Assembly: GCA_963816185.1 (NCBI GenBank)
Contig: CAWFJJ010000028.1
Span: 544,001 to 608,000, forward strand
Direction: 5' to 3'
Origin: Thermoanaerobaculia bacterium
GTDB taxonomy: Bacteria > Acidobacteriota > Thermoanaerobaculia > UBA5066
DNA length: 64,000 nucleotides
Shown: positions 1,293-59,037 of the stretch, in pieces
How positions within the stretch are numbered: the first letter of the stretch is position 1
How the letters are laid out: the number at the start of each line of letters is the position of its first letter
Translations under genes and position numbers: made by a program
The notes under the pieces: model-generated
Told to the model about the DNA's origin: nothing
Databases searched by the model: none
Seen by the model: the letters and a program-made list of their open reading frames with translations, nothing else

Positions 1293-2162
1293 ATGCGCTG
1301 GAAGCCTGTCGACGTTCTGACGACGCTGTTCGCGACCGCCCTCCTGGCGGCCGGGCTGATGCGGTTCGAAGCACTGGAAAACCGGGGGGTGCTTCTGAGA
1401 ATGGGGCTGGTTGCCGTCGTTCCGGCGCTGATCGCCATGCTCCGTGGCCGCAATCCGAACCCGTCTAGGAGTCTTCAAATTCTCCTGGATTTCTACATCA
1501 TCGGCTGCGTCGTCGTGATCTTCGACGGGCTCGGCCCGCTCATTCGTGCCGTCCACCCCGTCGATTACGACGCCGCGCTCATCGCGTTCGACCGCGCGCT
1601 CTTCGGAACGGACCCGACCGTGGCGCTCGAGAAGATCGCGACGCCCTTCCTCTCGGACGTCCTGACGGTCTTCTACGCGCTCTACTACTTCCACCCCATC
1701 GTCCTCGGGACGCTCGTGCTCCTCGACGACCGCGATCGCCCCGCGCTCGAGCGCGATTTCCCCCGCTTCGCGTTCGTCATCGTGTTCGTGTTCTACGTCA
1801 GCTACTTGTGCTACTTCCTCGTGCCCGCGATCGGCCCCCGCTACACGCTCGTACACGCCGGGCCGCTGCCGCGGGGCGCGATCTCGCAGGCGATCGACCA
1901 CACGCTCGACGTCCTCGAGAAGAACAAGCGCGACTGCTTTCCCTCGGGCCACACGATGGTCCTCGTGGCCATCCTCCTCGAGGCGCGTCGCCGATCGAAG
2001 AAGACGTTCTGGGCATTCCTGCCGTTCGCGGTCGGCCTGATTCTCGCCACGGTCTACTGCCGGTACCACTACGTCGCGGACGTGCTCGCGGGCCTTGCCC
2101 TCGCATTCGTGACGGTCCTGCTCGGGAACGCGCTTTACAGGCGCTTCGCCACCAGCCGATAG
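1293..2162 (+). CDS. PAP2 superfamily membrane protein, AUR1/inositol-phosphorylceramide-synthase-like
   Basis: Multiple TM helices; motifs PAIGPRY, RDCFPSGH and YCRYHYVADVLAG. Confidence 0.8.
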   Translation: MRWKPVDVLTTLFATALLAAGLMRFEALENRGVLLRMGLVAVVPALIAMLRGRNPNPSRSLQILLDFYIIGCVVVIFDGLGPLIRAVHPVDYDAALIAFDRALFGTDPTVALEKIATPFLSDVLTVFYALYYFHPIVLGTLVLLDDRDRPALERDFPRFAFVIVFVFYVSYLCYFLVPAIGPRYTLVHAGPLPRGAISQAIDHTLDVLEKNKRDCFPSGHTMVLVAILLEARRRSKKTFWAFLPFAVGLILATVYCRYHYVADVLAGLALAFVTVLLGNALYRRFATSR

Positions 2163-3262: not shown

Positions 3263-3294
3263 GCTGCCTTGAGGAAATTCGCCTTCGGATTGAA

Positions 3295-3384
3295 GATTGT
3301 CTTAGAAGGGAGATGAAGCCGCGGCGAACGGGAGCGCCAGAGCGACGCGTGAAGGGCCTCGCCCCTTCATGCTTCTAAGAAATC
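3295..3384. repeat. Inverted pair of the dispersed CTTCTAAGAAATC motif (intergenic)
   Basis: GATTGTCTTAGAAG at 3295-3308 and CTTCTAAGAAATC at 3372-3384, with inner ATGAAG/CTTCAT extending the symmetry. Confidence 0.75.
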
Positions 3385-3405
3385 CGAAAACCCCCGGTCC
3401 CCATC

Positions 3406-4635
3406 CTACGAAACCAGCCCCAGCTCCCGGCCCACCTTGTGGAACGCCTCGAGGGCGCGCGTGAGGTGGGCCTTCGTGTGCGTGGCCATGTAGGACGTCC
3501 GGATGAGGGCGCGGCCGGGGGGCGAGCCGGGGCTGACGACGGCGTTCACGAAGACCCCCTCGTCGTCCAGACGCGCGGCCATCTTGAACGCAAGCTCGTC
3601 CGGCCCGACGACGATCGGGATGACGGGCGTCTGGGAGTTGCCGCAGTCGAACCCGATGGCGCGCAGGGCCGTCAACATGAACCGCGTGTTCTCCCAAAGA
3701 CGCTCGCGGCGCTCGGGCTCGTTCTCGATGATGTCGAGCGCGGCGAGGACGGCCGCGACGCAGGCCGGCGGCGGCGCCGCCGTGAACATGAGCGCGCGAG
3801 CCCTGTGCTTGATGAACTTGATGACCTCCGGCTCGCCGACGACGAAGCCTCCCACGGTCGCGAGCGACTTCGAGAACGTACCCATGATGAGGTCGACTTT
3901 GTGCTCGAGGCCGAAGTGCTCGGCGGTGCCGCGACCGTGCTTGCCGAGGACGCCGACGCCGTGCGCATCGTCGATCATGAACGCCACGTCGTAGTCGTCG
4001 CAGATGCTGACGTACTCGGGGACGGGCGCGATATCGCCCTCCATCGAGAAGACGCCGTCGACTACGAGGATCCGCCCGTTGCGGTCGCCGTTCAGGGCGA
4101 GAAGCCGGCGCAGGTCAGCCGGATCGTTGTGCTTGAACTTCTTGACGTCGGCCCCGACCGCGAGGCGCGCGCCGTCGTAGATGCAGGCGTGGTCCTGCCG
4201 GTCGAGGTAGATCGCGTCGCCCTTGCCCGCGAGCGAGGACAGGACGCCGAGGTTGACGAGAAAGCCCGTCGAAAACGTCACGCAGGCCGGTTTCTCCATG
4301 AAAACGGCGAGGCGCTCTTCCAGCTCGACGTGGATGTCGAGCGTCCCGTTCAGGAGGCGGCTGCCGGCGCAGCCCGCGCCGTACTTCCTGACGGCCTCGA
4401 TCGCGCGCTCCTTGATCTTCGGATGCGAGGTCAGGCCGAGGTAGTTGTTCGACCCCAGCATGACCATCTCCCGGCCCCCCATCATGACGACCGGGTCCTG
4501 GCCCGACTCGATGGTCCTGAAGAAGGTAAACAGGCCGGCGGCGCGAAGCTCGTCGGGTACCGTATAAGTTCGACACTTATCGAAAAGTGAGCGGCTCAAG
4601 GCGGGTTCCGCGATGACATTCGACCGACCAAGCAT
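3406..4635 (-). CDS. spt: Serine palmitoyltransferase-like alpha-oxoamine synthase (PLP)
   Basis: FFRTIESGQD, GSNNYLGL, GSRLLNGT, DHACIYDG, DGVFSMEGD, DDAHGVG and DLIMGTFSKSL (PLP lysine). GAGGA precedes ATG 4635; the ORF is open to 4683. Confidence 0.8.
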   Translation of the reverse strand: MLGRSNVIAEPALSRSLFDKCRTYTVPDELRAAGLFTFFRTIESGQDPVVMMGGREMVMLGSNNYLGLTSHPKIKERAIEAVRKYGAGCAGSRLLNGTLDIHVELEERLAVFMEKPACVTFSTGFLVNLGVLSSLAGKGDAIYLDRQDHACIYDGARLAVGADVKKFKHNDPADLRRLLALNGDRNGRILVVDGVFSMEGDIAPVPEYVSICDDYDVAFMIDDAHGVGVLGKHGRGTAEHFGLEHKVDLIMGTFSKSLATVGGFVVGEPEVIKFIKHRARALMFTAAPPPACVAAVLAALDIIENEPERRERLWENTRFMLTALRAIGFDCGNSQTPVIPIVVGPDELAFKMAARLDDEGVFVNAVVSPGSPPGRALIRTSYMATHTKAHLTRALEAFHKVGRELGLVS

Positions 4636-4718
4636 CGATTCATCCTCTGCGGCTGCGGGCCGCGCCCCGTGGTGCTGTCTCATTTCGTGTCCTCTGTCCT
4701 TGGAATTTTACCACCTCG

Positions 4719-11665: not shown

Positions 11666-12577
11666 ATGCGCCACCAGATCCTGACCGCTCTCCTCCTCGC
11701 CGCCGGGGCCGCGAACGCCTCCTCATCGTCCGGTTTCGGCCTCGAGGTCCTCGTCGACGGACGCGAGCGTCCCGAGTACGAGGCACGCGGCACCGTCTAC
11801 GTCGAGGCCCTTCGCGGCCGCGATTACGCGCTTCGCCTTTCGAACCCGACGGGCACGCGCGTCGCCGTAGCGCTCTCGGTCGACGGGCTGAACACGATCG
11901 ACTCGCGCCGAACTTCGGCCCGGGATGCGCGCAAATGGGTTCTCGCGCCTTACGAGACCGTCGTCATTCCGGGCTGGCAGGTCTCGACCGCGGCGTCGCG
12001 AAAGTTCTTCTTCACGGGCGAGCGCGGCTCCTACGGCGCGGCCCTCGGGAAAACGAAGGATCTCGGCGTCCTCGAGGCGGTGTTCTTCCGCGAGAGGCTT
12101 CCCTACCGCATCGAGAGGCGCTGGAGAAAGGGCAAGGACCAAGAAGAGATTTCTTCGAATGAAAATGAGGACTCTGCCGCCGCGGCACCGGCGGTGCCCA
12201 GCCGAGGCGGCGATCGCGACCTTTCGAAGCAATCGTCCTCTTCGGAGGGTGCCGCCGAGAAGGGTAAGCTCTCGCAGAACGAGCCGTCCGGCACGGCACG
12301 GGACCATTCGCAGAAATCTCTTTCTTCCTCTTCGTCTCCCTCCTCGGCGCTGTCCGACGAGTACGCCGCGACCGGAATGGGGCGAAAGACGCAGTTCGGC
12401 GTGACGCAAGTCGACCTCGACCTCGAGACGGAGCCCGCCGCCGTCGTGCGGCTGCGCTACGAGTTCCGGCCGCAGCTCATCGCGCTCGGCGTCCTGCCCC
12501 GTGACCCGGACTCGTCGCGCATCGCGCGCCGCGAGCGCGCCCGCGGCTTCGAGGAGTTCTGCCCCGAAGTCCGATAG
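11666..12577 (+). CDS. Secreted hypothetical protein with a Ser-rich low-complexity linker
   Basis: Signal peptide; beta-rich YALRLSNPTGTRVAVALSVDGLNTID...IPGW...SYGA...GVLEAVFF; C-terminal TGMG...VRLRYE. Confidence 0.75.
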   Translation: MRHQILTALLLAAGAANASSSSGFGLEVLVDGRERPEYEARGTVYVEALRGRDYALRLSNPTGTRVAVALSVDGLNTIDSRRTSARDARKWVLAPYETVVIPGWQVSTAASRKFFFTGERGSYGAALGKTKDLGVLEAVFFRERLPYRIERRWRKGKDQEEISSNENEDSAAAAPAVPSRGGDRDLSKQSSSSEGAAEKGKLSQNEPSGTARDHSQKSLSSSSSPSSALSDEYAATGMGRKTQFGVTQVDLDLETEPAAVVRLRYEFRPQLIALGVLPRDPDSSRIARRERARGFEEFCPEVR

Positions 12578-27257: not shown

Positions 27258-27289
27258 ATGGAAGATAGAAGAAATGAGAGAAGAGAAGA

Positions 27290-27469
27290 GATTTCTTAGA
27301 AAGTAATCGGGCCAGCGGCAGCGGCGAAGCAGGCGCGGCAACGGCGGAGCGGGAAGCGATGGCCGTCTGAGCGCCTTCTAAGCAATGTATTCGGACAAAG
27401 CTCGGACGCAGCGGACGCGGCATCAGCCGCGCAGACCGCGGCGCCCGTCCACGTGCCTTCTGAGAAATC
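27290..27469. repeat. Cluster of three CTTCTAAGAAATC-type motifs with a long purine tract
   Basis: GGAAGATAGAAGAAATGAGAGAAGAGAAGAGATTTCTTAGAAA (core 27293-27301), CTTCTAAGCAAT (core 27376) and CTTCTGAGAAATC (core 27458). Confidence 0.75.
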
Positions 27470-27851
27470 TTCGTCCCCCGGTCCCTCTTCGGACACCACA
27501 GGCGCGGCACCGGCAGCACAGCCCGCATCGCCCTCTGACGCGCAAAGGAATCCTCTCGAGCAGACGGTCATCGACGAGGCTTTGAAGAAGTGCTTCGACC
27601 CCGAGATCCCGGTGAACATCTGGGAGCTGGGGCTGATCTACGACGTGAGCGTGTCGCCCGAAGGCGTCGCAGACGTGAAGATGACGCTCACGGCACCCGG
27701 GTGCCCTGTCGCCGGATCCCTTCCCGGCGAGGTCGAGACGAAGATCAAAGCCGTCCCCGGCATCACCGACGCGAAGGTCGAGCTCGTCTGGGATCCGCCC
27801 TGGACCGTCGAGATGATGTCGCGCGTGGCCAAAGTCATGCTCGGGATGTGA
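27453..27851 (+). CDS. sufT: SufT/PaaD-like DUF59 Fe-S assembly protein (start uncertain)
   Basis: DPEIPVNIWELGLIY, MTLTAPGCPVAG and ELVWDPPW. Confidence 0.88.
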   Translation: MPSEKSSSPGPSSDTTGAAPAAQPASPSDAQRNPLEQTVIDEALKKCFDPEIPVNIWELGLIYDVSVSPEGVADVKMTLTAPGCPVAGSLPGEVETKIKAVPGITDAKVELVWDPPWTVEMMSRVAKVMLGM

Positions 27852-34387: not shown

Positions 34388-37300
34388 TGGCTCGCGAGCG
34401 GGCAGCCGCTCTCCCCGACGGGGCCGCCCGCGACGAGATCCGCACCGAACTCGACGTCACGCTGCTCGTGGAGGCCGGCGCGGGCTCCGGCAAGACGACC
34501 ATGCTGGTCGACCGGATGATCGCGCTTCTGGCCGCGGGAAAGGCCGGACCCCATAACCTCGCCGCCGTCACGTTCACGCGCAAGGCCGCGTCGCACCTGA
34601 GACGCCGCTTCCAGAGCGCCCTCGAAGAGGCGGCCCGGGGCGAGCGGGACGCTTCTCGCAGGAGACGGCTCGACGCGGCGCGCGGGGGGCTCGATCGCCT
34701 CACGCTCGGCACGATCGACTCCTTCTGCGCTCTCCTGCTGTCGGAGCGACCCCTCGAGGCGGGAATCGATCCCGCCGCGCTCCGGGTCGAGCTGCAGGAA
34801 GCGGCGCTCTTTCGCGCCCGGACGTTCCGCGAGTACGTCGGCACGCTCGCGGATGCGCGCAGCCCCGTCGCCGCTCTCTTCGCGCTCGGCGTCACGATGA
34901 AGGAGCTCGAGGACAGCTTCGAGCTCTACGCCGAATACCCCGACGTCGTCCCCGTCGTCGCGGATCCGCTCGCACTTCCGGACTTCAGTGGAACGAGGGA
35001 GAAAGTCGAAGATTTCTTAGAAAGAGCAATTCCGCTCGTACCGGCGGAGCCAGGCCCTGAACGGCGCGACGAGCTGCAGACTAAGCTCCTCGAGGCCCGC
35101 AACCTGCTGCAGCTTCCCGAGCACAGCACGCCTGCAGGGTTCGCGCGCCTTCTAAGAACTCTTCGTCCCCACGGCGGAGCCACGCAAAAGAGGTGGCCCG
35201 ACAAGGCGCTGGCGAAACGGCTGGGCCAGGAATACGAAGATCTTCGCCAGAGCGTCATAAAGCCCGCTCTCGCCGAATGGCAGCTCGTGCTGCACGAGCG
35301 AATCTACGCCGTCCTCCGACCCGCGTTACAGCACGTTGCCGCGCGGCGCGCGGGCAGCGGGCCGTTCACGTACGCCGACTTGCTCCTCGCAGCTCGCGAT
35401 CTTCTCCGGGACTTTCCTGCCGTTCGGCGGGCGTTCGGTGCCCGCTTCACGCACCTTCTCGTGGACGAGTTCCAGGACACCGATCCGCTTCAGGCCGAGA
35501 TCCTGCTTTACCTGACGAGCGACGACCTCGACGAGAAGGACGTGTCGCGCCTGAAACCGAGGGCAGGATCCCTCTTCGTCGTGGGCGACCCCAAGCAGTC
35601 CATCTACCGGTTCCGCCGCGCCGACATCGCGGCGTACATGAACTTTCGCCGTACCCTCACCGCCTCGGGCGGGCGCATCGTCCGGCTCGAGGCGAATTTC
35701 CGCGCGGTTCCCACCCTTACAGATCCGGCGAATGCGTGGTTTCGAGCTCTCCTTCCGGCGGAGGCAAACGACCGGCAGGCCTCCTTCGCTCCGCTCGCGC
35801 CCGTGCGCCGGGACCGCTCGGAGAGGTCCGGAGCGTTCCGCCTCCGCACGAAGGCCGGCGACGCGACGGCCGACGAAGTCGTGTGCGCCAACGCGACCGA
35901 CGTCGCGAGCTTCGTCCGACGGGCGGTCGATCACAAATGGCCCGTCGCGTCCGACGGTCCCGAGCGCGCCGCGCGATTCGGCGACTTCCTCGTCCTGACG
36001 CGCACGCGCGACCACCTCGACGCCTACGCGCGCGCCTTCGAGGCGCTCGGCATTCCCGTGGACGTTTCGGGGAGCAGGGCGCTCCCGATCTCGAAGGGCC
36101 TCGCCGAGCTGCGGCCCTTTCTCGCGGCCGTCCAGGATCCGGACGACGACGTCTCGGTCGTCGCGTTTCTTTCCGGCCCTCTCTCGGGAGTCGACGACGA
36201 CGCGCTCTACCGGTTCCACCGGGCGGGTGGACGTTTCTCCTACCTCGTCGATCCACCGCCGGGAACGGACCCGCGGATCGAACGTGGTCTGGACCTCCTC
36301 GCGAAGGCCCGGAGGGACGTGAACGCGCATCCGGCGGGTGCGGCCCTCGGCCTCATCTGCGACAGGCTCGGCCTCGTTGCACGCCTCGCCGCCGGGCCCG
36401 AGGGCCGGACTGCCAGCGGAAACCTCCTGAAAGTCCTGGCGCTCGCGAGGCGCCTCACGAGCGAAGGGCTTTCCTTCCGGGACGTCGTCGAGCGGCTCGC
36501 GGAGGATGCGCCTTCGCTCGATCTCGAGGAGATGAGCGTCGAGCCAGTCGATGCCGACGCGGTCCGGCTGATGAACCTTCACCGGGCCAAGGGTCTCGAG
36601 GCTCCCATCGTCGTTCTCGCCGAGCTCGGCTCCTGGAGGAAGGCGGAGCCGAAGCGTCACGTCGCGCGCGGGGCGGCGGGCTCTCGCGGCTGGTTCACCG
36701 CGGGCTTCTGGATGCGACCCGAGGGCCGTGCGAATCAATGGGTCGTGACGGCGACGCCGCCCGACTGGGAGAACCGGCGGGCGGAAGAGGCGGCATTCGA
36801 GGAGGCCGAGAAGATACGTCTCCTCTACGTCGCCGCCACCCGGGCACGCGACACGCTCGTCGTGAGCCTTCGGGAGGACAAGCCGGAAGTCGGAACCTGG
36901 GCGCCGCTGAGGTCCGGCCTGAAGGAGCTTCCGGTCGCGGTCGCGGAGCCTCGGCGTCTCGCCCCGACGAAGACACCGTCGCTCGCGGCGGAGCTCGCCG
37001 GGGCGCGGAAGTCGATCGCGGAAGCGCGCCTCCGGGCAGCGGCCCCTTCGTACTCGGTCACCCCCGTCACGGCGCTCGCGAAAAGAGAAGGGCCTCGCGC
37101 GCCGGCGGCGGCCGAGAACGCTCGCGGCACCGCTTGGGGACGCGTCCTGCACCAGCTCCTCGAGACGGCGATGCGAACGCCCGGCATCGAGCTTCGTCCT
37201 GTTGCGGAGAACCTCCTCCGCGAGGAAGAGCTCGGGCCGGCGCTTCTCGACGAGGCGCTCCGCGTCGCCGAGTCGGTGACGTCTTCGCCGCTCTGGAAGC

Positions 37301-37749
37301 GCGCGCGAAACGCAAAGCGCCGCTTCGTCGAGGCGCCTTTCGCGATGATGGTCCCGTCGGCCGACCTCGGCGTCCCGGGCGGACCGGAGGAGACCCTCCT
37401 CAGGGGAGCGATCGACCTCGTCTTCGAAGAGGACGGCGTATGGCACATCGTGGACTGGAAGTCCGACGCCGTCGGCGACAACCTTCCCGCGCTCGTCGCG
37501 CACTACGCGCCGCAGATCGCGCACTATCGCAAGGCGTGGGAAGCGCTCACGAAACAGCGGGCGGTCGCTGGGCTCTATTTCATGGACAACGGACACCTGG
37601 AATGGCTGGAAGACGAGGAAAGGAAGAACGAGGAGAAGGGAGAAGATTCTTTGAAAGGGGTTAGGGACACGCCGCCGCCTGAAACGAAGCCTCCCCAGGC
37701 GCCGAGCGGTCGGTTCAAACAAGGCTCTTTACCATTCGAAGAAGATTGA
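34387..37749 (+). CDS. addA: AddA-like UvrD helicase with C-terminal nuclease
   Basis: EAGAGSGKT, VTFTRKAA, VDEFQDT, VGDPKQSIYRFR, HRAKGLE, LLYVAATRAR and GAIDLV...IVDWKS. TGATG-coupled to the addB-like gene. Confidence 0.88.
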   Translation: MARERAAALPDGAARDEIRTELDVTLLVEAGAGSGKTTMLVDRMIALLAAGKAGPHNLAAVTFTRKAASHLRRRFQSALEEAARGERDASRRRRLDAARGGLDRLTLGTIDSFCALLLSERPLEAGIDPAALRVELQEAALFRARTFREYVGTLADARSPVAALFALGVTMKELEDSFELYAEYPDVVPVVADPLALPDFSGTREKVEDFLERAIPLVPAEPGPERRDELQTKLLEARNLLQLPEHSTPAGFARLLRTLRPHGGATQKRWPDKALAKRLGQEYEDLRQSVIKPALAEWQLVLHERIYAVLRPALQHVAARRAGSGPFTYADLLLAARDLLRDFPAVRRAFGARFTHLLVDEFQDTDPLQAEILLYLTSDDLDEKDVSRLKPRAGSLFVVGDPKQSIYRFRRADIAAYMNFRRTLTASGGRIVRLEANFRAVPTLTDPANAWFRALLPAEANDRQASFAPLAPVRRDRSERSGAFRLRTKAGDATADEVVCANATDVASFVRRAVDHKWPVASDGPERAARFGDFLVLTRTRDHLDAYARAFEALGIPVDVSGSRALPISKGLAELRPFLAAVQDPDDDVSVVAFLSGPLSGVDDDALYRFHRAGGRFSYLVDPPPGTDPRIERGLDLLAKARRDVNAHPAGAALGLICDRLGLVARLAAGPEGRTASGNLLKVLALARRLTSEGLSFRDVVERLAEDAPSLDLEEMSVEPVDADAVRLMNLHRAKGLEAPIVVLAELGSWRKAEPKRHVARGAAGSRGWFTAGFWMRPEGRANQWVVTATPPDWENRRAEEAAFEEAEKIRLLYVAATRARDTLVVSLREDKPEVGTWAPLRSGLKELPVAVAEPRRLAPTKTPSLAAELAGARKSIAEARLRAAAPSYSVTPVTALAKREGPRAPAAAENARGTAWGRVLHQLLETAMRTPGIELRPVAENLLREEELGPALLDEALRVAESVTSSPLWKRARNAKRRFVEAPFAMMVPSADLGVPGGPEETLLRGAIDLVFEEDGVWHIVDWKSDAVGDNLPALVAHYAPQIAHYRKAWEALTKQRAVAGLYFMDNGHLEWLEDEERKNEEKGEDSLKGVRDTPPPETKPPQAPSGRFKQGSLPFEED
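35011..35160. repeat. Inverted pair of the CTTCTAAGAAATC motif inside the addA coding sequence
   Basis: GATTTCTTAGAAA at 35011-35023 and CTTCTAAGAACT at 35149-35160. Confidence 0.75.
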
Positions 37750-38531
37750 AGAACGTCGCCCTCGCCCGCCGCTCACTCGACGCGCTTCTCGTCGCGCTCA
37801 TGGCCTCGGGCCTCGCGGGCTGCGCGTCTTCGATGTGGGAAAGGACCGAGAAGATCTCTTCGAGTGGCTTCGAGGCGCGCCTGTACGTCCCCAAGGTCTG
37901 GGCGCCGCTCCTGCCCGGCTCGGCGTATCCGAACAAGCGCGTGCCCGTTCCGGCGAGGGGCCGCCCCTCCGTCGTCGTCGTCTGTCCGGTGTCGGGGAAG
38001 TGCCCGAAGAAGGAGCTCCTCGGGCCTCTCGCGGAGCGAGGGTTCGTCGTCCTGCTCTTCGAGAAGTCGCCGAAAGAGCCGCCGAGGGCGGATTTGCTTC
38101 GAACCCGCGCAGAGAGCAAGGACGCAGCAGTAGGCTGGCTCTTGATCTCGCCCACCGAGGATTTTCTTAGAAAGGGTATGGGGCCGGCAGGGGCGGCTCC
38201 CGCTGCCGTGGCGATTTTGCAGAGCCGCAGGTCCGATGCAGACGCGCTTCCCTCCCTTCCCTCCCCTTCTAAGAAAGTCTTCAGCGACGTTTCCCGCGGC
38301 GCCGACGTGGCCGCCCTGCCCGGGTCCCCCTCCCCCTCTTCCCGTTCTCAGAAACTCCTCGGCGGCGCCACCCGAAGAGTGCTGCTGGAGGCGCTGCTCG
38401 GGTCCGAAGCAAATGTTTCTTCCGACGGCGTGATCGTAAAGCTCTACGCCCCCGACGCCGCCGGACGCCTTCCCCGCGAGGCTTACCGCGACGCCGCTGA
38501 GTGGCTGGCGGGCGAACTCGGGGCGCGTTGA
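37746..38531 (+). CDS. Hypothetical lipoprotein, possibly a degenerate alpha/beta-hydrolase fold
   Basis: Lipobox LAGC; ARLYVP...SVVVV...LAERGFVVL. TTG start overlaps the addA stop. Confidence 0.6.
   Translation: MKNVALARRSLDALLVALMASGLAGCASSMWERTEKISSSGFEARLYVPKVWAPLLPGSAYPNKRVPVPARGRPSVVVVCPVSGKCPKKELLGPLAERGFVVLLFEKSPKEPPRADLLRTRAESKDAAVGWLLISPTEDFLRKGMGPAGAAPAAVAILQSRRSDADALPSLPSPSKKVFSDVSRGADVAALPGSPSPSSRSQKLLGGATRRVLLEALLGSEANVSSDGVIVKLYAPDAAGRLPREAYRDAAEWLAGELGAR
38160..38356. repeat. Three CTTCTAAGAAATC-type motifs inside the lipoprotein gene
   Basis: TTCTTAGAA at 38164, TTCTAAGAA at 38267 and TTCTCAGAA at 38345. Confidence 0.75.
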
Positions 38532-44624: not shown

Positions 44625-44681
44625 GTTACGGACTTTACGATGGTTTCCCGCCGCGCCCGCTGCGATAACATTTCCCCCCTC

Positions 44682-46433
44682 ATGACCATTCTAAGAAATC
44701 TCTCTCTTCTTCTCGCATTCGCGTTCGCCACCGCGGCCTGCCGGAAACCCGAGACGAAACCCGTCTCCCCCACTCCGGCTCCCGAGCCCACGCGCGTCTC
44801 CTCTTCGATCCGGTTCGAGGACGTGACCAAAGCCTCGGGCGTGGCGTTCACGCACGTGAACGGCGCCGCCGGAAAGAAGTGGATGCCCGAGACGATGGGC
44901 TCGGGCGTGGCCGCATTCGACGCCGACGGCGACGGCCGCATCGACCTTCTCTTCGTGAACGGCCGCTACTGGCCGGGCGATCCCCGCGGCGCCGCGGGAC
45001 AGCCAACGCTCGCGTTCTACCGCAACGTCACGGAGAGAGGCGGTGCGATCCGCTTCGAGGACCGCACGAAGGAGAGCGGGCTCGCGGTCTCTCTCTTCGG
45101 CATGGGCGTCGCCGTCGGCGACGTGAACGACGACGGGTTTCCCGACGTCGTGATCACCGGTCTCGACGACATCCGCCTGTTCCTGAACGACGGAAAAGGC
45201 CGCTTCCGCGACGCGACGAAAGGCTCCGGCCTCGTCGGCTCGGGCTGGGGCACGTCGGCGGCGTTCGCGGACTTCGACGGCGACGGCGTCCTCGACCTTT
45301 TCGTCGGCCAGTACGTCAACTGGACGCCGAAGACGGACATGTACTGCTCGCTGGACGGGAAGACGAAGTCCTACTGCACGCCCGAGCGCTATCCCGGCAC
45401 GCCCTCGCGGCTCTACAAGGGCCTCGGCGGCGGGAAGTTCAAGGAGATTACGAAGGAGGCCGGCCTCGTGAACCCGCTCGGCAAGGCGCTCGGCGTCGCG
45501 GTGCGCGACGTCGACGGCGACGGCCGCATCGACATCGTCGTCGCGAACGACACCTCTCCGAATAATCTCTGCCGGAACGAGAAGACCGTGAACGGCATCC
45601 CGGTGTTCCGGGACATCGCCGTCGAGGCCGGCATCGCCGTCGGAGAGGACGGCCGCGCGCGCGGGGCGATGGGCGCCGCGTTCGGCGACACGAAGAACGA
45701 CGGCGGAGTCTCGCTCGTGATCGGCAACTTTTCGAACGAGATGTGGTCCGTCTGGAGCGCCGGGCCGAAAGGCGACTTCTTCGTGGACGAGTCCGTGCAA
45801 AGCGGCATCGGCCGGACCTCCCTTCTGCCGCTCACATTCGGCGTCGCGTTCGCCGACTTCGACCTCGACGGCGTGCTCGATCTCGTGGGGGTTAACGGAC
45901 ACGTGGAGACCTCCGTCCAGGACGTCCAGCCGACCGTGACGTATCGGCAGCCTCCGCTCCTCTTCCGTGGGCTCGGCGCCGGCCGGTTCGCCGACGTGTC
46001 GTCTCAGGTCGGCGCGAGCTTTCTCGTCCCGATCGTCGGGCGCGGCCTGGCCGTGGCCGACCTCGACGGCGACGGACGGCCCGACCTCGTCGTGACCGAG
46101 AACGGAGGCCCCGCGCACATCTTCCGAAACGTCACCGAGACGCCCGCGCACTCCGTGAGGCTCCAGCTCGCGACGAAGACGAAGAATCGCGGCGCCCTCG
46201 GAGCCCGCGTGACGTGCTCGATCGGCGGCAAGACGCGCGTGGACGAGGTGTCGGGCGGCGACGGCTATCTCTCCGTCAACGACCGGACAATAACGCTCGG
46301 CCTCGGCTCGGCTGCGACGCTCGACGCGGTCGACGTCCGATGGCCGGACGGCACGACGGCCTCCGAAAAGGGCCTCGCGCCGGGCCTCTACCGGTGGGTC
46401 GAAGGGGAATCCCCGGCGGCGGTGAAACGCTAG
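44682..46433 (+). CDS. CRTAC1 family lipoprotein (FG-GAP repeats plus ASPIC/UnbV domain)
   Basis: Lipobox TAAC; ETMGSGVAAFDADGDG; repeated DxDGDG; RGLAVADLDGDG; NRGALGARV...GYLS...LGLG...VRWPDG. Confidence 0.9.
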   Translation: MTILRNLSLLLAFAFATAACRKPETKPVSPTPAPEPTRVSSSIRFEDVTKASGVAFTHVNGAAGKKWMPETMGSGVAAFDADGDGRIDLLFVNGRYWPGDPRGAAGQPTLAFYRNVTERGGAIRFEDRTKESGLAVSLFGMGVAVGDVNDDGFPDVVITGLDDIRLFLNDGKGRFRDATKGSGLVGSGWGTSAAFADFDGDGVLDLFVGQYVNWTPKTDMYCSLDGKTKSYCTPERYPGTPSRLYKGLGGGKFKEITKEAGLVNPLGKALGVAVRDVDGDGRIDIVVANDTSPNNLCRNEKTVNGIPVFRDIAVEAGIAVGEDGRARGAMGAAFGDTKNDGGVSLVIGNFSNEMWSVWSAGPKGDFFVDESVQSGIGRTSLLPLTFGVAFADFDLDGVLDLVGVNGHVETSVQDVQPTVTYRQPPLLFRGLGAGRFADVSSQVGASFLVPIVGRGLAVADLDGDGRPDLVVTENGGPAHIFRNVTETPAHSVRLQLATKTKNRGALGARVTCSIGGKTRVDEVSGGDGYLSVNDRTITLGLGSAATLDAVDVRWPDGTTASEKGLAPGLYRWVEGESPAAVKR

Positions 46434-50844: not shown

Positions 50845-50995
50845 GGAATGCCTCCCTTCGGGCAATGCCGTTTTTCTTAGAGGGTGAATACGGAATGCTC
50901 TCCGCAGGGTTTCGGCGCAGCGCATGCGGGGCGTGGCGCCTTGGCTCCCTTCCTCGCGGCAGCCATTCACCGACACAGGTCTTATCATCGCGGGC

Positions 50996-53231: not shown

Positions 53232-56200
53232 TTATCTTTCCCCCAGAGCCTCTCTGAAGCGTTCCGGCCCGACCTTTCGCGTGAGCGTCTCCTCGAGGAA
53301 CTTCGGATCGGGATGGTGCTCGGAGGGGGGATAGGGGTATGCCGACATCGCATGGAAAGGCCAGGGCTCGTACGACTGGCCCGTGACGGTGTTCTTGTCG
53401 AAGTCCTTGTCCCAGCCGTCGGACACGAGGATCCAGTCGCGGCGCCAGCCGGGCGCGAGCGGCGGCAGGTTGGAGGCGTCGTACGCGATGTGAATCGCGT
53501 CTCCGCCCTTGAACGCGACCCAGCGGTCGTCGGTTTTCGCGAGGAGCTCCGTGACGTCGCCGAGGCGCGTGACGCGGCCGGCCAAGTCCTCCCAGCGCGG
53601 AGCGGTCGAGACGTCGCCGTGGTCGAACACTTCAGGGCCGTCGGGCGTCTCGCGATATCCGCGCGGGAAGCCGCGCTCGGTGAGGACGGCCGAGGACGGC
53701 GCGAGCGCAGTCGTGACGACCTCGACCGCGGGATCGTTCACCGTGACGAACGCCTCGTCCCAGAAAATCGCCATCGTCGTTCGAATGCGCACGCGCGGGT
53801 CTTTCGGGTCGATGAGGCCGGTGAGGTCGACGGGCATCGTCTTGGTCTTGCCCGCCGGGAACCCGAACGACTCCATCGCGACCTTCCAGCCGCCCGCGCC
53901 ATCCGGAACCTCGAGGATCGGGGGAAAATGCTCGAGGTCTTTCCGCTGCGAGAGGGAGACGTTGATGGATGTATCCGTGTAGAAGATCCAGCCGGTGAGG
54001 AAGAGGACGATGCGATCCCCTGCCTTCACGTCGCCGAGGTCGAGCACCAGGGAGTGCTCCTGCCTCACGCCCTGATAGAACATCTCGGGCCCGGGGCCGA
54101 CGTAGACGTGATCGCGGTGCGCGAGGCGAGAGGTCACATCCTCGAGGCGGCCGGAGGCGTCCGAGAAGGCGGCGCGCAAGGGCCTCGGGTGCGCTACCGT
54201 GAAGAGCTTCTTCTCCGGGACGCCTGGAATCGTCCGCTCGTTCGGGACGACGCCCGTGCCCTCGGGATGGTCCACGGCCACGAGCGTCGCCTCGTCGAGG
54301 TACGCGACCTCCCACAGCTCCTCGGTGTAGTCGAGGAGAAGGCGGCGATTCGCGTCCGGCTTCAAGGTCTCGCCGTCGATGAAGAGCCACTCGCGCGTGT
54401 CCGCACCTGCGAGGTGGACCCCGTCGTAGAGGAGACCGATCGGAGAACGCCCGAGCGCGTCCGAGACGAAGGTCCACACTCCGGTCTCGCCGTTGCGAGC
54501 GTAAACGAACGGGCACGAGCCCTTGAGCTGCTGAACCTCCTTCACGACGGATTTCGATCTCTGGTCGAAGATGTTTTGCGGCACGCCGTTCGTCCAGGTG
54601 GCTCGCACGACGTCGGCTTTCGTGCGCGTGCCGAGGCCGAAATGCGTGGGCGGAATTGCCACCGTACGCGCGACGTACAGATTTCCCGCCTTCACCTCGA
54701 CGAGGCTGCCGATGCCGCGCTTGTTCACCTTGCCGGATCCCGTTTGCAGCCCCTCGAGAACGACGTCCAGCCAGCCGTTCGCGTTGCCGCCGTCGTTGAT
54801 GAGGACGCTGGTTCTGCCGCCGGCCGAGACGAGGAGGTCGAGATCCCCGTCCTTATCGACGTCGTATGCGAGGAGAGCCTCGATGTTCGTAAGGCTCGAA
54901 GAGAACGAAGAAGAGGATTTCTTAGAAGGGGAAGAGAAGATGGGCCACGCCGGAAATTCGACCGCCGCCCTCGTTGCGGAAGGCGTGGAGCTCGCCGCCC
55001 GCGGTCGCGGCGATGACGTCCGGGAATCCGTCGTTGTCGAAGTCGGCCAGCACCACCGCGTGCATTGCGACCTGTGCGGGCGCCCCGGTCGCGGCACCCC
55101 GGCCAGCCCGTGCGAATTCCTGCCCCGTGCCTTCTAAGAAACTCCCATCCCCTTTTCCCAACAGCAGCCGTAACCCTTTCGACGTGGCGACGACCATGTC
55201 CGGGATGCCGTCCGCGTTCACGTCCTCGACCGCGAGATCAACCGCGCCTGCCACCCCGAGCGGGACGCTCCGGAAGACGCCCTGGCGGAGATTCAGCCGC
55301 AGGACGAGATCGCCCTTCGTGTCGATCGTGACGAGGTCCGGGTCGCCGTCGCGGTCCACGTCGGAGACGACGACTTTCCTCGAGGTGAACCTCGCGTCGC
55401 CCGTCTTCGCGGTCACGTCCGTGAACGTGCCGTCGAGGTTGTTGCGGAGGAGCTGGTCGGGTTTGCCGCCGCCCAAGAGGTAGACGTCGAGGTCGCCGTC
55501 GAGATCGAAGTCGAAGAAGGCGGCGGCCGTGTACGGCGCGGGAATCGGATAGAGAACGGCCGTGCCGGAGTTCGCCAGATCCACCTTTCTAAGCAATCTC
55601 CCGAGGTCCTCCTCGGACGCAGCCGGCGCACGGAAGGAGACCGGAATAGCCGCACCCGCGCCCGCGCGCAGCCCCTCCTCCACCTTCGGAGAAAACCTCT
55701 CGACGGGCAGGCCCATGACCTGCGTGAAGACCTCTCCGAGCGACTGCTGGTAGCGCGGCGTGACGCGCAGGACGTTCTCGAGGACACGGACCTTGACGCT
55801 AGCGCCTTTGACGTCGCCGCCGCCGACGAGCGCCCTGGCCTGCGCGAGAAACTGGCGCGCTCGGGCGTCGCCGTCCGAGACGAGGGGGTCGAGCTCCGCG
55901 AGACCCTTCGACAGCGCGGCCGCGTCTCCCGCTTCCCCCTCGAGGACGAGCAGCTTCAGGCGCGCGGGCAGGTTCGAGGGCGAGCGGGCGACGATCTCGG
56001 CGAGGCGCGTGCGCCGGGCCGCCTTGTCGGCCGGCGACGCCGCCGGGTCTGTCTCCACGCTTCGCGCGAATCGCCAGCGCGACTCGAGGTCGTGAGGGTC
56101 GAGGGACGCCGCCTTGTCGAACGCGGCGCGGGTGCCCGCGGGCCGGTTTCGCTCGTTCTCGATGACCGCGCGAATCGCGTAGAGGTCCGCCCGCTCTCCC

Positions 56201-56559
56201 AGCGCGAGCGCCTTGCCGAGGAGAGCTTCCGCGCCCGGAAGATCCTTCTCGCGCAGGGCGGCGATCGCGCCGTTCGCGAGCGGCAGCGCTTCGCCCGGCA
56301 CCGCGTCCGCCAGTTTCGCGAACGTCGAGCGGGCCTCCTTCGGCTTGTCCTCCTCGAGCTGAGCGAGCCCCACGTTGCGCAGCGTCAGGATGCGCGACGC
56401 CTGCTCGGGGGAGAAACGGGGAGAAGAGGGATTTTCTGCTGAAGAGGAAGACGACATTCCCACGGCGGCGGCTACGAGGCTCGCGGCGAGCATCGGGAGA
56501 CGTCCGAGGAGAGACCGGTTCTGAGAAGGGGGACCGACGAAGGAGCGAATCCGACTCAT
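53232..56559 (-). CDS. Large TPR + FG-GAP + ASPIC/UnbV protein with an extended C-terminal domain; +1 frameshift near 54957
   Basis: ORF 54922-56559 (TPRs, DxDxDGD repeats) joins ORF 53232-55097 (GIGSLVEV, HFGLG, LKGSCPF, GFPAGKTK, GWDKD, PFHAMSAYPY) after removing one base. Confidence 0.82.
54916..55143. repeat. Inverted pair of the CTTCTAAGAAATC motif inside the TPR/ASPIC gene
   Basis: GAAGAAGAGGATTTCTTAGAAGGG (core 54919) and CTTCTAAGAAACT (core 55132); a further CTTTCTAAGCAATC has its core at 55587. Confidence 0.75.
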
Positions 56560-56584
56560 CGAGACGCATTATTGCCGGAGATGC

Positions 56585-56663
56585 TCCTCGGCCGCCGGGA
56601 GTCAAGGGTCATCGACCGCTACGCGGCGCGCGGAGCGCGCCCTTGACACCCGCCGGCCGAGGA
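56585..56663. repeat. 24-bp imperfect inverted repeat, each arm carrying an outward-facing TTGAC(A/T)
   Basis: TCCTCGGCCGCCGGGAGTCAAGGG (56585-56608) versus CCCTTGACACCCGCCGGCCGAGGA (56640-56663); 2 mismatches. Confidence 0.7.
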
Positions 56664-56678
56664 ACACATTCCAACTAT

Positions 56679-56702
56679 CGGCGGCTGCATTCGCAGCCGC
56701 CG
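56679..56702. terminator. GC-rich hairpin (possible terminator or sRNA stem)
   Basis: CGGCGGCTGC-ATTC-GCAGCCGCCG perfect 10-bp stem, downstream of the 56749 gene's stop codon. Confidence 0.5.
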
Positions 56703-56748
56703 CATATAAGAAGAGTTTCCTCTTCCGTTCTCCCTTCGGCTTCTTTCT

Positions 56749-59037
56749 TCATCTTCTAAGCAGATCTCTCTTCGGCTCTTTCCCCTGAACCCACCTCACG
56801 AGCGAACCCGCCGGAACGTCTTTGAGCTCTTCCTTGGTGCCGTCCGGCCAGCGGACCTCGATGACGTCCGCCGCTTTCGCGCCGCCGAGACCGAAGAGGA
56901 GGTCGTGCGACGACTGCGAGAGGTACGACGAGCCCGCGCGCACCTCGCGAAGCTGCACCTTCCCGCTCACCCGCAGGCGGACCACGGCGCCGAGGGCGTC
57001 GCGGTTCATGCCGTGATCGGCCGAAAGCCGGACGACGACGCGCCCGGCGCCGCTCCCCCACCCGTTGCGATAGACGAGAAGCGGCCCGCGGAAGCACGAG
57101 ACGACGACTTCCGGCGCGCCGTCGCCGTCGAGGTCCGCATACGCGAGGCCGCGCGTGTCCTCGAGCGTGTCGAACCCTTCCACGAACGCCCGCTCCTCGA
57201 ACGTGCCGTCCCCGCGGTTCCAGAAGAGCTTCTTCGGCGTCCGCGAGGCCATGCCGTTGACGCCGAAGTCGATGCCTCCCCACACGCCGTCGTGGAAGTT
57301 CACGCCTTCGCGCCCCATCGCGTTCCAGAACGAGATTTCGTCGTCGACGCCGGTCGTCGCCCGGAACATGCCGTTCACGACGAGAAGGTCCTCGCGGCCC
57401 TTGCCGTCGAGGTCCACGAACTCCGTGCCCCAGGCCCAGCCGCCGTCTGCGACCCCGGCCGCCTCGGACGTGCGTTCGAACTTGAGGCCGCCGAGATTGC
57501 GGAAGAGGCCGTCCCCGTCGGAGCGCCGCTGCATGATCTTCGCCATGTGAGAGCGCACCAGGCTCGCGCCCGGAAGAGGCGGCATGGGCCAACGCGAGTC
57601 GTTCAGGATCCAGCGATAGGGCGTCCAGTAGTCCGAAACATGCAGGTCCCAACGGCCGTCGCCGTCGTAGTCCCCCCACGCGACGCCCATTCCGTAGCCC
57701 TCGTCCTGCGTGCCGTTCGTCCGGGCGATGTTCACGAAGAACGGGTGGCCGGGTGTGGACCGGTTCTCGAAGAATCCGTTCTTGCCGAAGTCGTTCGCGA
57801 CGTAGAGGTCGTCGTCGCCGTCGTCATCCGCGTCGCAAGCTTCGGCGGCCAGGGCCCAGCCCACGTCGCCGAGGCCGGAGGCCGCTGTTTCGTCCACGAA
57901 GAAGGGATGCCCGTCACGCTCCACGTTCCGAAAGAAACGGTCACCCGGGCCGTTGACGCCGTTGTACGCGGGACCCGTGGCGCGTGCATCTCCGTAGCTC
58001 GCGACGAAGAGGTCGACGCGGCCGTCCCGGTCGGCGTCGAAGAGCACCGCGGACGTGAACGGCCCCGAAAGGCCGACGAGCCCCCACTCCTCGGTGACGT
58101 CGCGGAACTTTCCGTGCCCGAGGTTCTTCAGGAGGCGGCACGGGGAAATGTGATTCGAGAGAAACAGGTCCGGCAGCCCGTCCCCGTCCACGTCGGCCGC
58201 GACGCCGCCGGAGGCCTCCATCTCCGGCAGGAGATCGAGTCCGGAGCCCGACGTCGCGTCCCGGAAATGACCGGTTCCGTCGTTCAGGAAGAGCCGCGGG
58301 TGGAGGCCCGGGACGACGACGTCCACGGCGCCGTCCCCGTCCACGTCCACGAGGAGGACTCCCGGGCGGTGGTGCGTCGCGGGGAGGCAGAGATTCGTCG
58401 ACTCCACGGGGTCGAGGGGCTGGTGGGTCACCGCGAGGCCGCGCGAGGCGGCTTCTTCGAAGAGATGCGGCACGCCGCGCTGGATTTCGGCGGGGCCGCC
58501 GACGGCGATCGCCGATCGCAACTGCCAACGCGCCCTCGGAGAAAGATCATCGAATTTGCCTCGAAAAAGAGAGAGATCGAAGAGGGCCAAAGCCGCAACG
58601 CGCTCCAGATCATCCGCGCGCGCGAAACCCTGCAGGCGAACTTCGACGCGCACCGTCACGTTCGAAGAGGATTTCCTCTGAAGGTCGACGATGCGGATCG
58701 CCGAAGCGCAGCGGAGATGACACGCCGAACGCCAGCGTTCCTCCAGGTCTCGCATAGGAAACGCCGCGGCCGACTCCATTGCGCCAGATCTTTCCGTATC
58801 ACCGTCTAAGAAATCCTCTCTTTCTTTCTTACTTTCTAAGAAATCTTCTCTTCTCTCCTTCCCCCGAACCTTCTCTCCCGATCCATCTGCCTGAAAATCC
58901 CTCCTCAACTCGTCGACGAGGGCCGACGTCCCGAACGAGTAGTCCTCCAGCGTCGGCATGGGCCGGGTGCCGCCGCAAGCCGGCGCAAGGATCGCCAGGC
59001 CGAGGAGCCCGAACAACGCGATGGGACGCCTCACCAC
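56749..59037 (-). CDS. CRTAC1 family lipoprotein (N-terminal extra domain, FG-GAP repeats, ASPIC/UnbV)
   Basis: Signal/lipobox ILAPAC from GTG 59037; DxDGDG repeats; GWAWG; RGLAYADLDGDG; RDALGAVV...SSYLSQ...FGLG...VRWPDG. Confidence 0.88.
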   Translation of the reverse strand: MVRRPIALFGLLGLAILAPACGGTRPMPTLEDYSFGTSALVDELRRDFQADGSGEKVRGKERREDFLESKKEREDFLDGDTERSGAMESAAAFPMRDLEERWRSACHLRCASAIRIVDLQRKSSSNVTVRVEVRLQGFARADDLERVAALALFDLSLFRGKFDDLSPRARWQLRSAIAVGGPAEIQRGVPHLFEEAASRGLAVTHQPLDPVESTNLCLPATHHRPGVLLVDVDGDGAVDVVVPGLHPRLFLNDGTGHFRDATSGSGLDLLPEMEASGGVAADVDGDGLPDLFLSNHISPCRLLKNLGHGKFRDVTEEWGLVGLSGPFTSAVLFDADRDGRVDLFVASYGDARATGPAYNGVNGPGDRFFRNVERDGHPFFVDETAASGLGDVGWALAAEACDADDDGDDDLYVANDFGKNGFFENRSTPGHPFFVNIARTNGTQDEGYGMGVAWGDYDGDGRWDLHVSDYWTPYRWILNDSRWPMPPLPGASLVRSHMAKIMQRRSDGDGLFRNLGGLKFERTSEAAGVADGGWAWGTEFVDLDGKGREDLLVVNGMFRATTGVDDEISFWNAMGREGVNFHDGVWGGIDFGVNGMASRTPKKLFWNRGDGTFEERAFVEGFDTLEDTRGLAYADLDGDGAPEVVVSCFRGPLLVYRNGWGSGAGRVVVRLSADHGMNRDALGAVVRLRVSGKVQLREVRAGSSYLSQSSHDLLFGLGGAKAADVIEVRWPDGTKEELKDVPAGSLVRWVQGKEPKRDLLRR
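58803..58870 (+). repeat. Tandem pair of the CTTCTAAGAAATC motif with pyrimidine tracts
   Basis: GTCTAAGAAATCCTCTCTTTCTTTC (58804) and TTCTAAGAAATCTTCTCTTCTCTCC (58834), 30 bp apart. The minus strand encodes EDFLESKKEREDFLD. Confidence 0.75.

Follow-up and report, generated by a model that had tools for sequence, protein, structure and literature searches.

A lineage-restricted family of polar, often paired AT-rich elements in the genome of a Thermoanaerobaculia bacterium

We report a family of about 460 short dispersed elements, specific to one bacterial lineage and selectively maintained, which came to light in a stretch of 64,000 nucleotides (the window; contig CAWFJJ010000028.1, positions 544,001 to 608,000) from a Thermoanaerobaculia bacterium of the Acidobacteriota, whose genome assembly (G000) comprises 5,088,052 bp in 30 contigs with 67.2% GC. 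Each element is built from one or more copies of an oriented half-site with the core TTCTAAGAA/TTCTTAGAA. Paired copies almost always point away from each other across a centre that is mostly unique, and the sites lie mostly at gene and operon borders, regardless of gene direction. They are nearly absent outside two sister genera of uncultured soil Acidobacteria, are kept at orthologous positions in related species, and originate and decay by point changes and by small duplications or deletions. We tentatively put forward a reading that may well prove wrong: the elements would be paired polar binding sites, predicted from these features, for a lineage-specific DNA-binding protein that marks the boundaries of transcription units.

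The first-pass annotation of this DNA had listed thirteen exact cores where about 0.04 would be expected, and had interpreted them as a DNA-level code maintained against GC pressure. All thirteen were recovered at the same coordinates and on the same strands, and 100 dinucleotide shuffles of the window gave a mean of 0.04 exact cores (maximum 1); the earlier estimate of about 0.16 for A and for T likewise agrees with a GC content of 0.66-0.69 along the whole window and 0.672 in the genome. A genome-wide k-mer count, which the annotation had proposed as a check, finds 337 copies of TTCTAAGAA, 92 times the expectation from composition, split almost equally between the strands (172 forward, 165 reverse). 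Among 9-mers with at least 100 copies only the poly-A run ranks above it; a 15.6-kb contig outside the window carries 1028 T followed by 65 A (C10:1147-2239), probably an assembly artefact that accounts for the poly-A count. A weight matrix spanning positions -12 to +26 yields, at a score of at least 14 bits, 806 oriented sites in the genome, 27 of them in the window, and none in 2 Mb of second-order Markov simulated sequence. Sixteen degenerate copies had also been listed: eleven are matrix sites at this threshold (3303, 12155, 21352, 27462, 37651, 38349, 50878, 53088, 55591, 56758 and 58808), the one near 27376 matches the 13-mer with two substitutions, and those near 1393, 12307, 30617 and 56519 are, by eye, weaker look-alikes (TTCTGAGAA, TTCGCAGAA, TTCCTGGAA and TTCTGAGAA, respectively).

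Chaining sites at 300 bp or less gives 463 loci. Recurrence of clusters every 2-9 kb, as first described, holds within the window; genome-wide, the gaps between loci average 9.9 kb (median 4.9 kb), with a coefficient of variation (CV) of 1.47, which means that the loci are clustered. Their density on the large contigs varies about fivefold, from one per 33 kb (C29) to one per 7 kb (C24 and C28), a contrast for which a division into core and accessory regions, an additional replicon or an effect of binning could be responsible. Neither Rfam nor tRNA scanning gave a match in the window.

Concerning the anatomy of the half-site, a logo of the 337 genomic TTCTAAGAA copies aligned in one orientation shows that conservation extends over about 23 bp, CC..TTCaCC-TTCTAAGAA-ATC, and that a tract of about 25 pyrimidines comes next. 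The logo agrees with the AAATC extension and C/T tract described previously, and also reveals an inner flank that had escaped notice, which is G-poor and C-rich, roughly CCCC..TTCaCC, with a C two bases before the core in 92% of copies. On the outer side the core is followed by A (71%), then T or A, then a pyrimidine run that stays G-poor to about +30; this outer tract has a three-nucleotide, CTC/TTC-like rhythm, with CTCTTC as the commonest hexamer. Single-base variants of TTCTAAGAA almost all occur in 0-29 copies. The common ones are TTCGAAGAA (287 copies, partly plain coding for Phe-Glu-Glu, FEE), TTCAAAGAA (60), those with a central C or G (64 each) and TTCTAAGCA (48), while TTCTAAGGA occurs once and TTCTAAAAA not at all. 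Such specificity at nearly every position fits base-specific recognition. Changes at the mirror position are rare (TTCTACGAA 17, TTCTAGGAA 15 and TTCTATGAA 14, versus 287 for TTCGAAGAA) and palindromy is limited to TTCT.AGAA; because tolerance is not mirror-symmetric, the site is truly oriented despite its palindrome-like centre. Single sites resemble paired ones. At C1:445546, outside the window, the 3' end of the 16S rRNA and its flank, GGATCACCTCCTTTCTAAGGGATC, resembles TTCACC-TTCTAAGAA-ATC minus four bases; this likeness may be a coincidence, TTCTAAGGA itself being present only once in the genome.

The polarity of the pairs, first noted on the window copies, holds throughout the genome. 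Neighbouring sites in the divergent order (-,+) lie within 300 bp of each other in 248 of 272 cases, against 8 of 263 for the convergent order (+,-). Among the 463 loci, 182 have the pattern -+, 112 are a single + and 85 a single -, followed by --+ (28), -++ (22), -- (13) and ++ (8), plus a few longer ones such as -++++; +- alone is found at one locus. The layout rule is thus any number of left-pointing sites, a centre, and any number of right-pointing sites. The description "mostly in inverted pairs" applies to 240 of the 463 loci and not to the 197 that hold a single site. Centre-to-centre spacing of pairs starts at 40 nt, peaks at 74-78 nt and has a tail to 300 nt, and tandem copies are about 30 or 77 nt apart. 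As had been noted, spacers lack conservation: 206 of 240 match nothing else in the genome, and the 34 with a match elsewhere owe it mostly to kinase paralogues and a 135-bp repeat (see below), too few for the idea that the centres are filler DNA. Complementarity between the two members of a pair equals that with the sites of other pairs (partner-shuffle z 0.4-1.0); since there is no co-variation beyond the shared consensus, the members are independent copies of one signal and not a co-evolving hairpin. The 13 pairs at exactly 93 nt belong mostly to a paralogous Ser/Thr-kinase family (FFE...FEE) and are to be discounted; such kinase mimics (e.g. C24:602903, C24:616385 and C28:51687, outside the window) inflate the pair count by about a dozen.

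A search of related genomes, as the first-pass annotation had proposed, shows a sharp taxonomic limit. In the 24 other genomes of the same genus (g1) we counted 56-346 copies of TTCTAAGAA, in six genomes of the sister genus 2-45, in 22 genomes of eight other genera of the family 0-8, and in 12 genomes of two other families of the order 0-4 (two of these 12, G019 and G024, are unpublished, and the statement stands without them). The motif is thus present in all 24 congeneric genomes and nearly absent outside the two sister genera. Identical flanks and (-,+) pairs recur in the sister genus. In an outgroup genome (G062), of which 400 kb were searched, we found no comparable word and no other "dialect" of the same architecture; purine-then-pyrimidine tract neighbours there are not in excess (9 vs 10), compared with 23 vs 5 in 400 kb of G000 and 4 vs 0 in 75 kb of a congener. 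This sharp on/off boundary makes a reader protein, if there is one, findable by phylogenetic profiling.

Synteny with the window extends to five congeners; the species are 75-88% identical in DNA, with 66-91% (mostly 72-90%) in individual aligned blocks. For the 27 window sites, we counted as an orthologous match any matrix site that kept the relative orientation and lay no more than 60 nt from the orthologous position. Matches per mappable site were as follows:

G003: 15 of 25
G011: 23 of 27
G008: 15 of 24
G046: 19 of 26
G045: 19 of 23

These shares amount to 60-85%, for a chance expectation of 2.6-3.7%. Over 48 orthologous site pairs, identity from -14 to +7 is 62-98% and mostly above 70%, a figure inflated in the core because the sites were picked with the same matrix, and falls to about 50% beyond +16; the outer tract keeps its composition and not its sequence. 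Non-coding spacers are 43-56% identical by global alignment, and 79% in the closest species. Multi-species alignments directly show the same picture, with sites kept and spacers diverged.

The elements of the window, together with two features that lie next to or within them, are listed here by coordinate:

3273..3407: pair 3303 (-)/3377 (+), 74 nt apart, 26.0 and 23.9 bits, between the stop of an aminotransferase gene (3406, - strand) and the start of a GNAT gene (3262, - strand), both assigned by Pfam
12125..12340: site 12155 (-), TTCGAAGAA type, 30.4 bits, with a weak partner at about 12307 (+), TTCGCAGAA
21209..21382: pair 21239 (-)/21352 (+); the TAG stop of a Memo-like gene (20447-21241) lies inside the left core
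21394-21422: sigma70-like promoter TTGACT-17-TATCGT, outside the pair and downstream of 21352, the only one detected in 20 kb
24780..24830 (+): single weak site, TTCGAAGAAG, 22.2 bits, inside sufD (24167-25549, Pfam SufBD); probably plain coding for FEE
27267..27492: site 27297 (-), weak site 27375-27387 (+) and site 27462 (+), beyond the suf genes, the last of which is NifU-like (stop 27257)
30587..30700: site 30670 (+) with a weak partner at about 30617, inside a sodium:solute symporter gene (29767-31314, - strand)
34988..35184: pair 35018 (-), encoding EDFLER, and 35154 (+), encoding RLLRTL, inside an AddA-like helicase-nuclease gene
37621..37769: pair 37651 (-)/37739 (+), where the AddA gene stops (37749) and a lipoprotein ORF (open reading frame) starts (37746)
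38138..38379: sites 38168 (-), 38271 (+) and 38349 (+), within or beside the lipoprotein ORF (37746-38531), with the readings EDFLRKG and PSPSKKVF
44417 (+): weak site
44663..44723 (+): single site 44693, which provides ILRN, codons 3-6 in the lipoprotein signal peptide MTILRNLSLLLAFAFATAAC of an FG-GAP/ASPIC protein
50848..50908 (-): single site 50878, 22.4 bits
53058..53192: pair 53088 (-)/53162 (+), over the N-terminus of an FG-GAP gene (51425-53173, - strand)
54893..55166: pair 54923 (-)/55136 (+), at the 3' end of a gene (54922-56559, - strand)
55561..55621 (+): single weak site 55591, inside a gene
56489..56788: weak site at about 56519 (-) and site 56758 (+), flanking a palindromic repeat
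56575-56725 (approximate): dispersed palindromic repeat, distinct from the elements and about 135 bp in length, with a long hairpin CTCGGCCGCCGGGAGTCAAGGG...CCCTTGACACCCGCCGGCCGAG followed by GGCGGCTGCATTCGCAGCCGCC
58778..58868 (+): tandem sites 58808 and 58838, 30 nt apart

Gene context was taken from Pfam matches and a crude codon-usage gene caller (80% coding density). Genome-wide, no ORF runs across 141 of the 248 pairs; long ORFs contain 68, and the remaining 39 overlap what may be a gene start. Where a site follows a gene, it often begins, in the reading direction of that gene, 11-60 nt past the stop or contains the stop itself. Single intergenic sites face gene starts in 51 cases and gene ends in 42, and tandem sides in 16 and 12, respectively; flank orientation derived from 300-nt codon scores was uninformative. 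One array of four tandem sites stands directly upstream of an ATG that lacks a Shine-Dalgarno sequence. Copies inside genes use the rare codons TTA, CTA and AGA. The overlay on coding sequence in different frames, another feature of the original description, is seen in the window genes, where sites supply TAA or TAG stops (genes ending at 54922 and 21241), a C-terminal tail and parts of signal peptides. A genome-wide link with signal peptides was considered and rejected (69 of 229, or 30%, vs 789 of 2906, or 27%, p=0.36).

A border case in the window is the Rrf2-sufB-sufC-sufD-sufS-nifU operon, which is bracketed by the 21239/21352 pair before its promoter and by the sites at 27297-27462 after its last gene, with one weak site inside. 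At 21239/21352 both sites are kept in all five congeners, around a spacer whose identity is 79% in the closest species and 43-56% in the other four. The homologues of the adjoining Memo-like protein in outgroup genera (35-44% identity) are too distant for the orthologous intergenic region to be compared. The promoter overlaps an IscR-type palindrome, GACTAAATCAGTC, upstream of the Rrf2-suf operon, and is conserved in the five congeners. The closing element begins 40 nt past the nifU stop and displays block changes between species: in G008 the tracts of purines and of pyrimidines are present but the core-to-core stretch is missing, and an additional unit stands on the left in G046 and on the right in G000. 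The weak site within sufD has an orthologous match in two of the five species.

Gain and loss are also apparent between the aminotransferase and GNAT genes. At 18 orthologous loci that reach past the stop, the 3303/3377 pair is found only in the closest relative (L024), with a diverged spacer; the two genes abut in L014, L021 and L023, and two more species have a single TTCTCAGAA- or CCTCAGAA-type word before the GNAT start. The spacer of this pair reads MKGRGPSRVALALPFAAASSPF-stop, yet a small ORF is not a likely explanation, as the reading is not kept in L024 and spacings of 74-78 nt show no preference for multiples of three. Comparison of the 12155/12307 element with four congeners shows both ends kept and a spacer length that differs by about 40 nt.

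In the AddA gene, orthologues from two other genera align through the stretch that holds the pair almost without gaps, and the pair is therefore not an insertion; it is present in G011 and G046, and G009 has at this position FLLR/LLGL, differing by point substitutions. The symporter site 30670 is conserved in all five species, and 50878 in three of the five. The 44693 site lies over a signal peptide whose hydrophobic core is encoded by the pyrimidine tract, and orthologues show ATTCTAAGAAATC, ATTCAAAGAAATC or ATTCAAAAAAATC. The 53162/53088 pair reads FFLRRVN, a signal-peptide core, and then YPFTESSSSPPLPP, so that it supplies both ends of a signal peptide. The centre of the 54923 core is the TAA stop of gene 54922-56559 and 55136 encodes SFLEG, both sites being found in all five species. 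The 56758 site encodes the C-terminal DLLRR-stop of gene 56749-... on the - strand. Finally, 58808 and 58838 occupy the divergent region between an FG-GAP gene (- strand) and an OEP-MFP-AcrB efflux operon (59102 onward), within which there are no sites.

These data lead us to infer, conditionally, a protein reader, action at the DNA rather than the RNA level, and an insulating or terminating effect. In the mechanism that we propose as a possibility, half-sites, one or more per side, would stand back to back around a unique and fast-evolving centre of 40-300 bp, and a sequence-specific protein of the two genera would read them as double-stranded DNA, binding in a fixed polarity, in an arrangement comparable to polar Ter barriers or to the two ends of a transposon. 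Transcription-unit borders would be marked or insulated by the elements in a genome where hairpin-plus-T terminators are not detectable. A protein reading double-stranded DNA is suggested by the footprint of about 23 bp, the compositional tail, the indifference to the direction of transcription, the polarity with back-up copies and the sharp phylogenetic boundary. A role in delimiting transcription units is suggested by where the elements stand, between stops and the promoter that follows, and by the fact that ordinary terminators are not detectable. A narrower version, which we consider rather doubtful, is a novel form of punctuation of the bacterial chromosome, a sequence-specific, factor-dependent bidirectional insulator or terminator, in which the protein on back-to-back polar half-sites would form a miniature Ter-like trap repeated about 240 times.

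Several points weigh against paired protein-binding sites at unit borders. No candidate binding protein was found, and a roadblock does not by itself force the observed polarity. The border statistics are approximate, resting on a crude gene caller. Long ORFs hold 68 of the pairs and possible gene starts are overlapped by 39 more, and a border role is difficult to picture amid a gene like that for AddA or the symporter. Pairs are not clearly enriched in any intergenic class, occurring in 3.5-6.8% of convergent, divergent and co-directional regions. Shine-Dalgarno-like words are rarer behind sites (16 of 70, or 23%, vs 995 of 2854, or 35%, p=0.04), and this, like the three-nucleotide rhythm of the outer tract, hints at a role in RNA or translation. 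The inflated core identity of matrix-picked orthologous sites has to be counted here too.

The main rival is an element read as RNA: a bidirectional terminator, Rho entry point, processing site or 3'-end stabiliser, with sites in leaders acting on translation. A transcript in either direction would read a purine arm with GAUUUCUUAGAAGG, the spacer, and CCUUCUAAGAAAUC with a U/C-rich, G-poor tail, that is, a long hairpin with a pyrimidine tail. Such a reading would account for the left half-sites that often start 11-60 nt past a stop or contain it, for the suf promoter lying outside the pair, as expected of a terminator, and for the lack of enrichment of canonical terminators (14 hairpins with a U-tract in 20 kb vs 12.1 expected). 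It would also fit the four tandem sites before an ATG without Shine-Dalgarno sequence, the scarcity of Shine-Dalgarno-like words behind sites, an inner flank AGAAGGUGA that is itself Shine-Dalgarno-like in a site resembling the 16S 3' end of this genome, CACCTCCTTTCTAAGG, and the rhythm of the tail. Whole elements do fold better than shuffles (mean z -1.74, compared with -0.58 for the spacer alone and 0.0 for random DNA), but so would any inverted repeat. RNA from the gene strand folds no better than that from the opposite strand, partners lack specific complementarity, and no compensatory changes are seen by eye in six-species alignments. Moreover, site orientation is independent of gene direction, the 197 single-site loci among 463 are unable to form the hairpin, and the base of the stem would be A/U-rich, unlike known intrinsic terminators. 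On balance we regard action at the RNA level as unlikely, if worth keeping in mind. Somewhat less likely still is that the half-sites are ends of an ancient cut-and-paste or paired-end element, which would have spread in a burst in the common ancestor of the two genera, depositing hundreds of small insertions whose interiors would since have become unrecognisable while the terminal binding sites survived, and is now kept for the host or slowly decaying; in the former case this overlaps with the binding-site reading proposed above. Transposon ends are laid out with just such a strict polarity and several direct copies at each end (-++, --+, -++++), and the spacing has a minimum, a mode at 74-78 bp and a long tail. 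Further, the block of about 140 bp between the aminotransferase and GNAT genes is absent where these abut in other species, units of about 80 nt have been gained and a core-to-core stretch lost between species, and the 135-bp palindromic repeat prefers the centres. These points have to be set against interiors that are unique in 206 of 240 cases, the lack of any visible target-site duplication, the origin of the AddA pair by substitutions, and a search for Y1/RAYT transposases that found no matching enzyme, other transposase families not having been searched; neutral relics would not keep -14 to +7 while their spacers decay.

We think it improbable that the half-site is a self-recognition word spread by biased uptake or repair without local function, in the manner of uptake signal sequences (USS), DNA uptake sequences (DUS) or the cyanobacterial HIP1, and the uptake-like signal that had been among the first candidates is weakened accordingly. 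The core of 9-11 bp with a compositional flank is strand-equal (172 vs 165) and lineage-restricted, overlies genes by point substitutions, in at least one case within a stretch that is variable between species, is conserved at orthologous places, and occurs beside ComEC. However, loci are clustered (CV 1.47, from one per 7 kb to one per 33 kb), at a site density of about one per 6 kb, far sparser than that of USS or DUS; divergent polarity at 40-300 bp with purine and pyrimidine tracts has no counterpart among uptake sequences, and ComEC (PF03772) is as common in motif-free genera (50 of 53 genomes of the family, with or without the motif). Invertons, in which half-sites would serve a global invertase as recombination sites and centres would flip, would explain inverted repeats of one shared motif flanking short unique segments at many loci, inside and outside genes, yet we consider them very improbable: at the two non-coding loci where spacers can be aligned (21239/21352 and 27297/27375) their orientation is the same between species, as judged from assembled contigs, the two members of a pair frequently carry different cores (TTCTTAGAA together with TTCTAAGAC, TTCTAAGCA or TTCTGAGAA, for instance), only one layout occurs where head-to-head and tail-to-tail would serve an invertase equally, and half-sites are also single and tandem. 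As to a by-product of codon or amino-acid usage, or an artefact of assembly or polishing, both of which the first-pass annotation had named as ways in which its proposal could fail, they are refuted for the bulk of the sites and have practically no chance of being right. Some sites are indeed plain coding sequence (the kinase FFE...FEE at 93 nt and, in part, TTCGAAGAA as FEE), but shuffles give 0.04 copies and simulation none, 141 of the 248 pairs are crossed by no ORF, copies in genes use rare codons, and the motif recurs at orthologous positions and in each of the 24 other genomes searched from the genus. What stands of the proposed DNA-level code is a signal kept against GC pressure at the level of the nucleic acid, as indicated by the 92-fold excess, the specificity of the core, the orthologous conservation and the rare codons.

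In broad terms the element is one of the oriented words that are specific to a lineage and over-represented in it; it fits no named repeat family on the tests that we ran. Repetitive extragenic palindromes (REP), their bacterial interspersed mosaic elements (BIME) and the REP doublets known as REPINs, which occur in Proteobacteria and are mobilised by RAYT transposases, are similar in being hundreds of short lineage-specific repeats, mostly intergenic, often just past stops, arranged as inverted doublets and serving as insertion targets for other small elements. The preferred spacing of REPIN doublets is roughly 70-110 bp. Differently from these, the half-site here is asymmetric and not a hairpin of its own, interiors are unique rather than mutual copies, the overlay on coding sequence arose by substitutions, and RAYT is mostly absent. 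The Y1/RAYT family (PF01797) is missing from G000 and was detected in 4 of 24 other g1 genomes, compared with 26 of 28 genomes from other genera of the family, among them all six of the sister genus and all 14 of the motif-free genus g17. Its distribution in the family is the inverse of that of the motif. We accordingly rejected REP/RAYT as a class, and miniature inverted-repeat transposable elements (MITEs) likewise do not fit on the tests that we ran. MITEs such as the Correia elements of Neisseria are also small, mostly intergenic units with inverted ends of fixed polarity, some of them co-opted into coding sequence, but here there is no internal homology and, by eye, no direct repeat at the element borders that could be a target-site duplication; some elements, the AddA pair among them, originated in place by point mutation, and positions are conserved across the genus.

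The USS of Pasteurellaceae and the DUS of Neisseriaceae share with our elements an over-represented oriented word with a compositional flank, strand equality, lineage specificity, a presence in genes at tolerant positions, inverted pairs near gene ends and conservation between species. Over-representation, strand equality and lineage restriction all hold here, unlike even spacing at high density: the elements are sparser and clustered, their pairs are 40-300 bp apart instead of forming tight hairpins, and they carry purine and pyrimidine tracts. The Tus-Ter fork trap, and the FtsK-orienting polar sequences (KOPS) around dif, likewise involve several oriented sites per side with opposite orientation across a centre; the present arrangement differs in its scale of about 100 bp, in being repeated about 240 times per genome and not once per chromosome, and in having no link to replication. 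Bidirectional intrinsic terminators resemble the elements in standing after stops and before the next promoter, with a symmetric purine arm, a structured middle and a pyrimidine- or T-rich tail, but have a G+C-rich stem abutting the U run, which is missing here, where loops measure 40-300 nt, there is no covariation, and many sites are single or inside genes. This class was rejected, given the lack of hairpin enrichment and a spacer fold z of only -0.58. Two terminator-like hairpins touch a half-site (38146-38160 and 35048-35031), and none forms a pair.

Two further candidates were discarded. A sigma70 promoter is not supported by any position-specific signal between -40 and -13, and promoter-like patterns are not enriched within 300 nt of 804 sites. 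A poxvirus-like topoisomerase IB site, suggested by the CCCTT-like flank, would require an enzyme family (PF01028) that is found in one of 53 genomes of the family, and not in G000. In the full-text literature, in a search that was not exhaustive and did not extend to supplementary files, we found no description of the word or of such elements in Acidobacteria, and searching on the word itself gave only eukaryotic STAT/GAS-type and unrelated matches. REP, USS/DUS, Chi, KOPS and HIP1 each led to their machinery, namely RAYT transposases, uptake receptors, RecBCD, FtsK and methylases. The family described here provides a clean case with a sharp anatomy (806 sites, polarity of 248 to 8) in an uncultured class of Acidobacteria, and a practical example of a DNA-level signal written over protein-coding sequence, including stops, C-terminal tails and parts of signal peptides. 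If insulation or termination were its role, it would show how a GC-rich lineage without detectable classic terminators delimits its operons.

The 135-bp palindromic repeat of the window gives 56 BLAST matches in G000 at 70-92% identity, which we estimate to represent about 45 copies, and has no Rfam match; other genomes of the genus have it as well. Within 200 nt, 20 of these matches have a left-pointing site to their left and 31 a right-pointing site to their right, 13 having both, so that the repeat prefers the centres of paired elements. In G007 and G008 it sits at the 53162 locus.

As for neighbouring genes, the ORF at 27894-29747 encodes 617 aa with a signal peptide and has no Pfam match; it has no aligned counterpart in the five syntenic congeners, and in G003 the flanking blocks are 22 nt apart. 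Genes for FG-GAP/ASPIC-UnbV (CRTAC1-like) proteins, most with signal peptides, are found once at 44682-46433 and as a row of four in tandem on the - strand from 51425 to about 58870.

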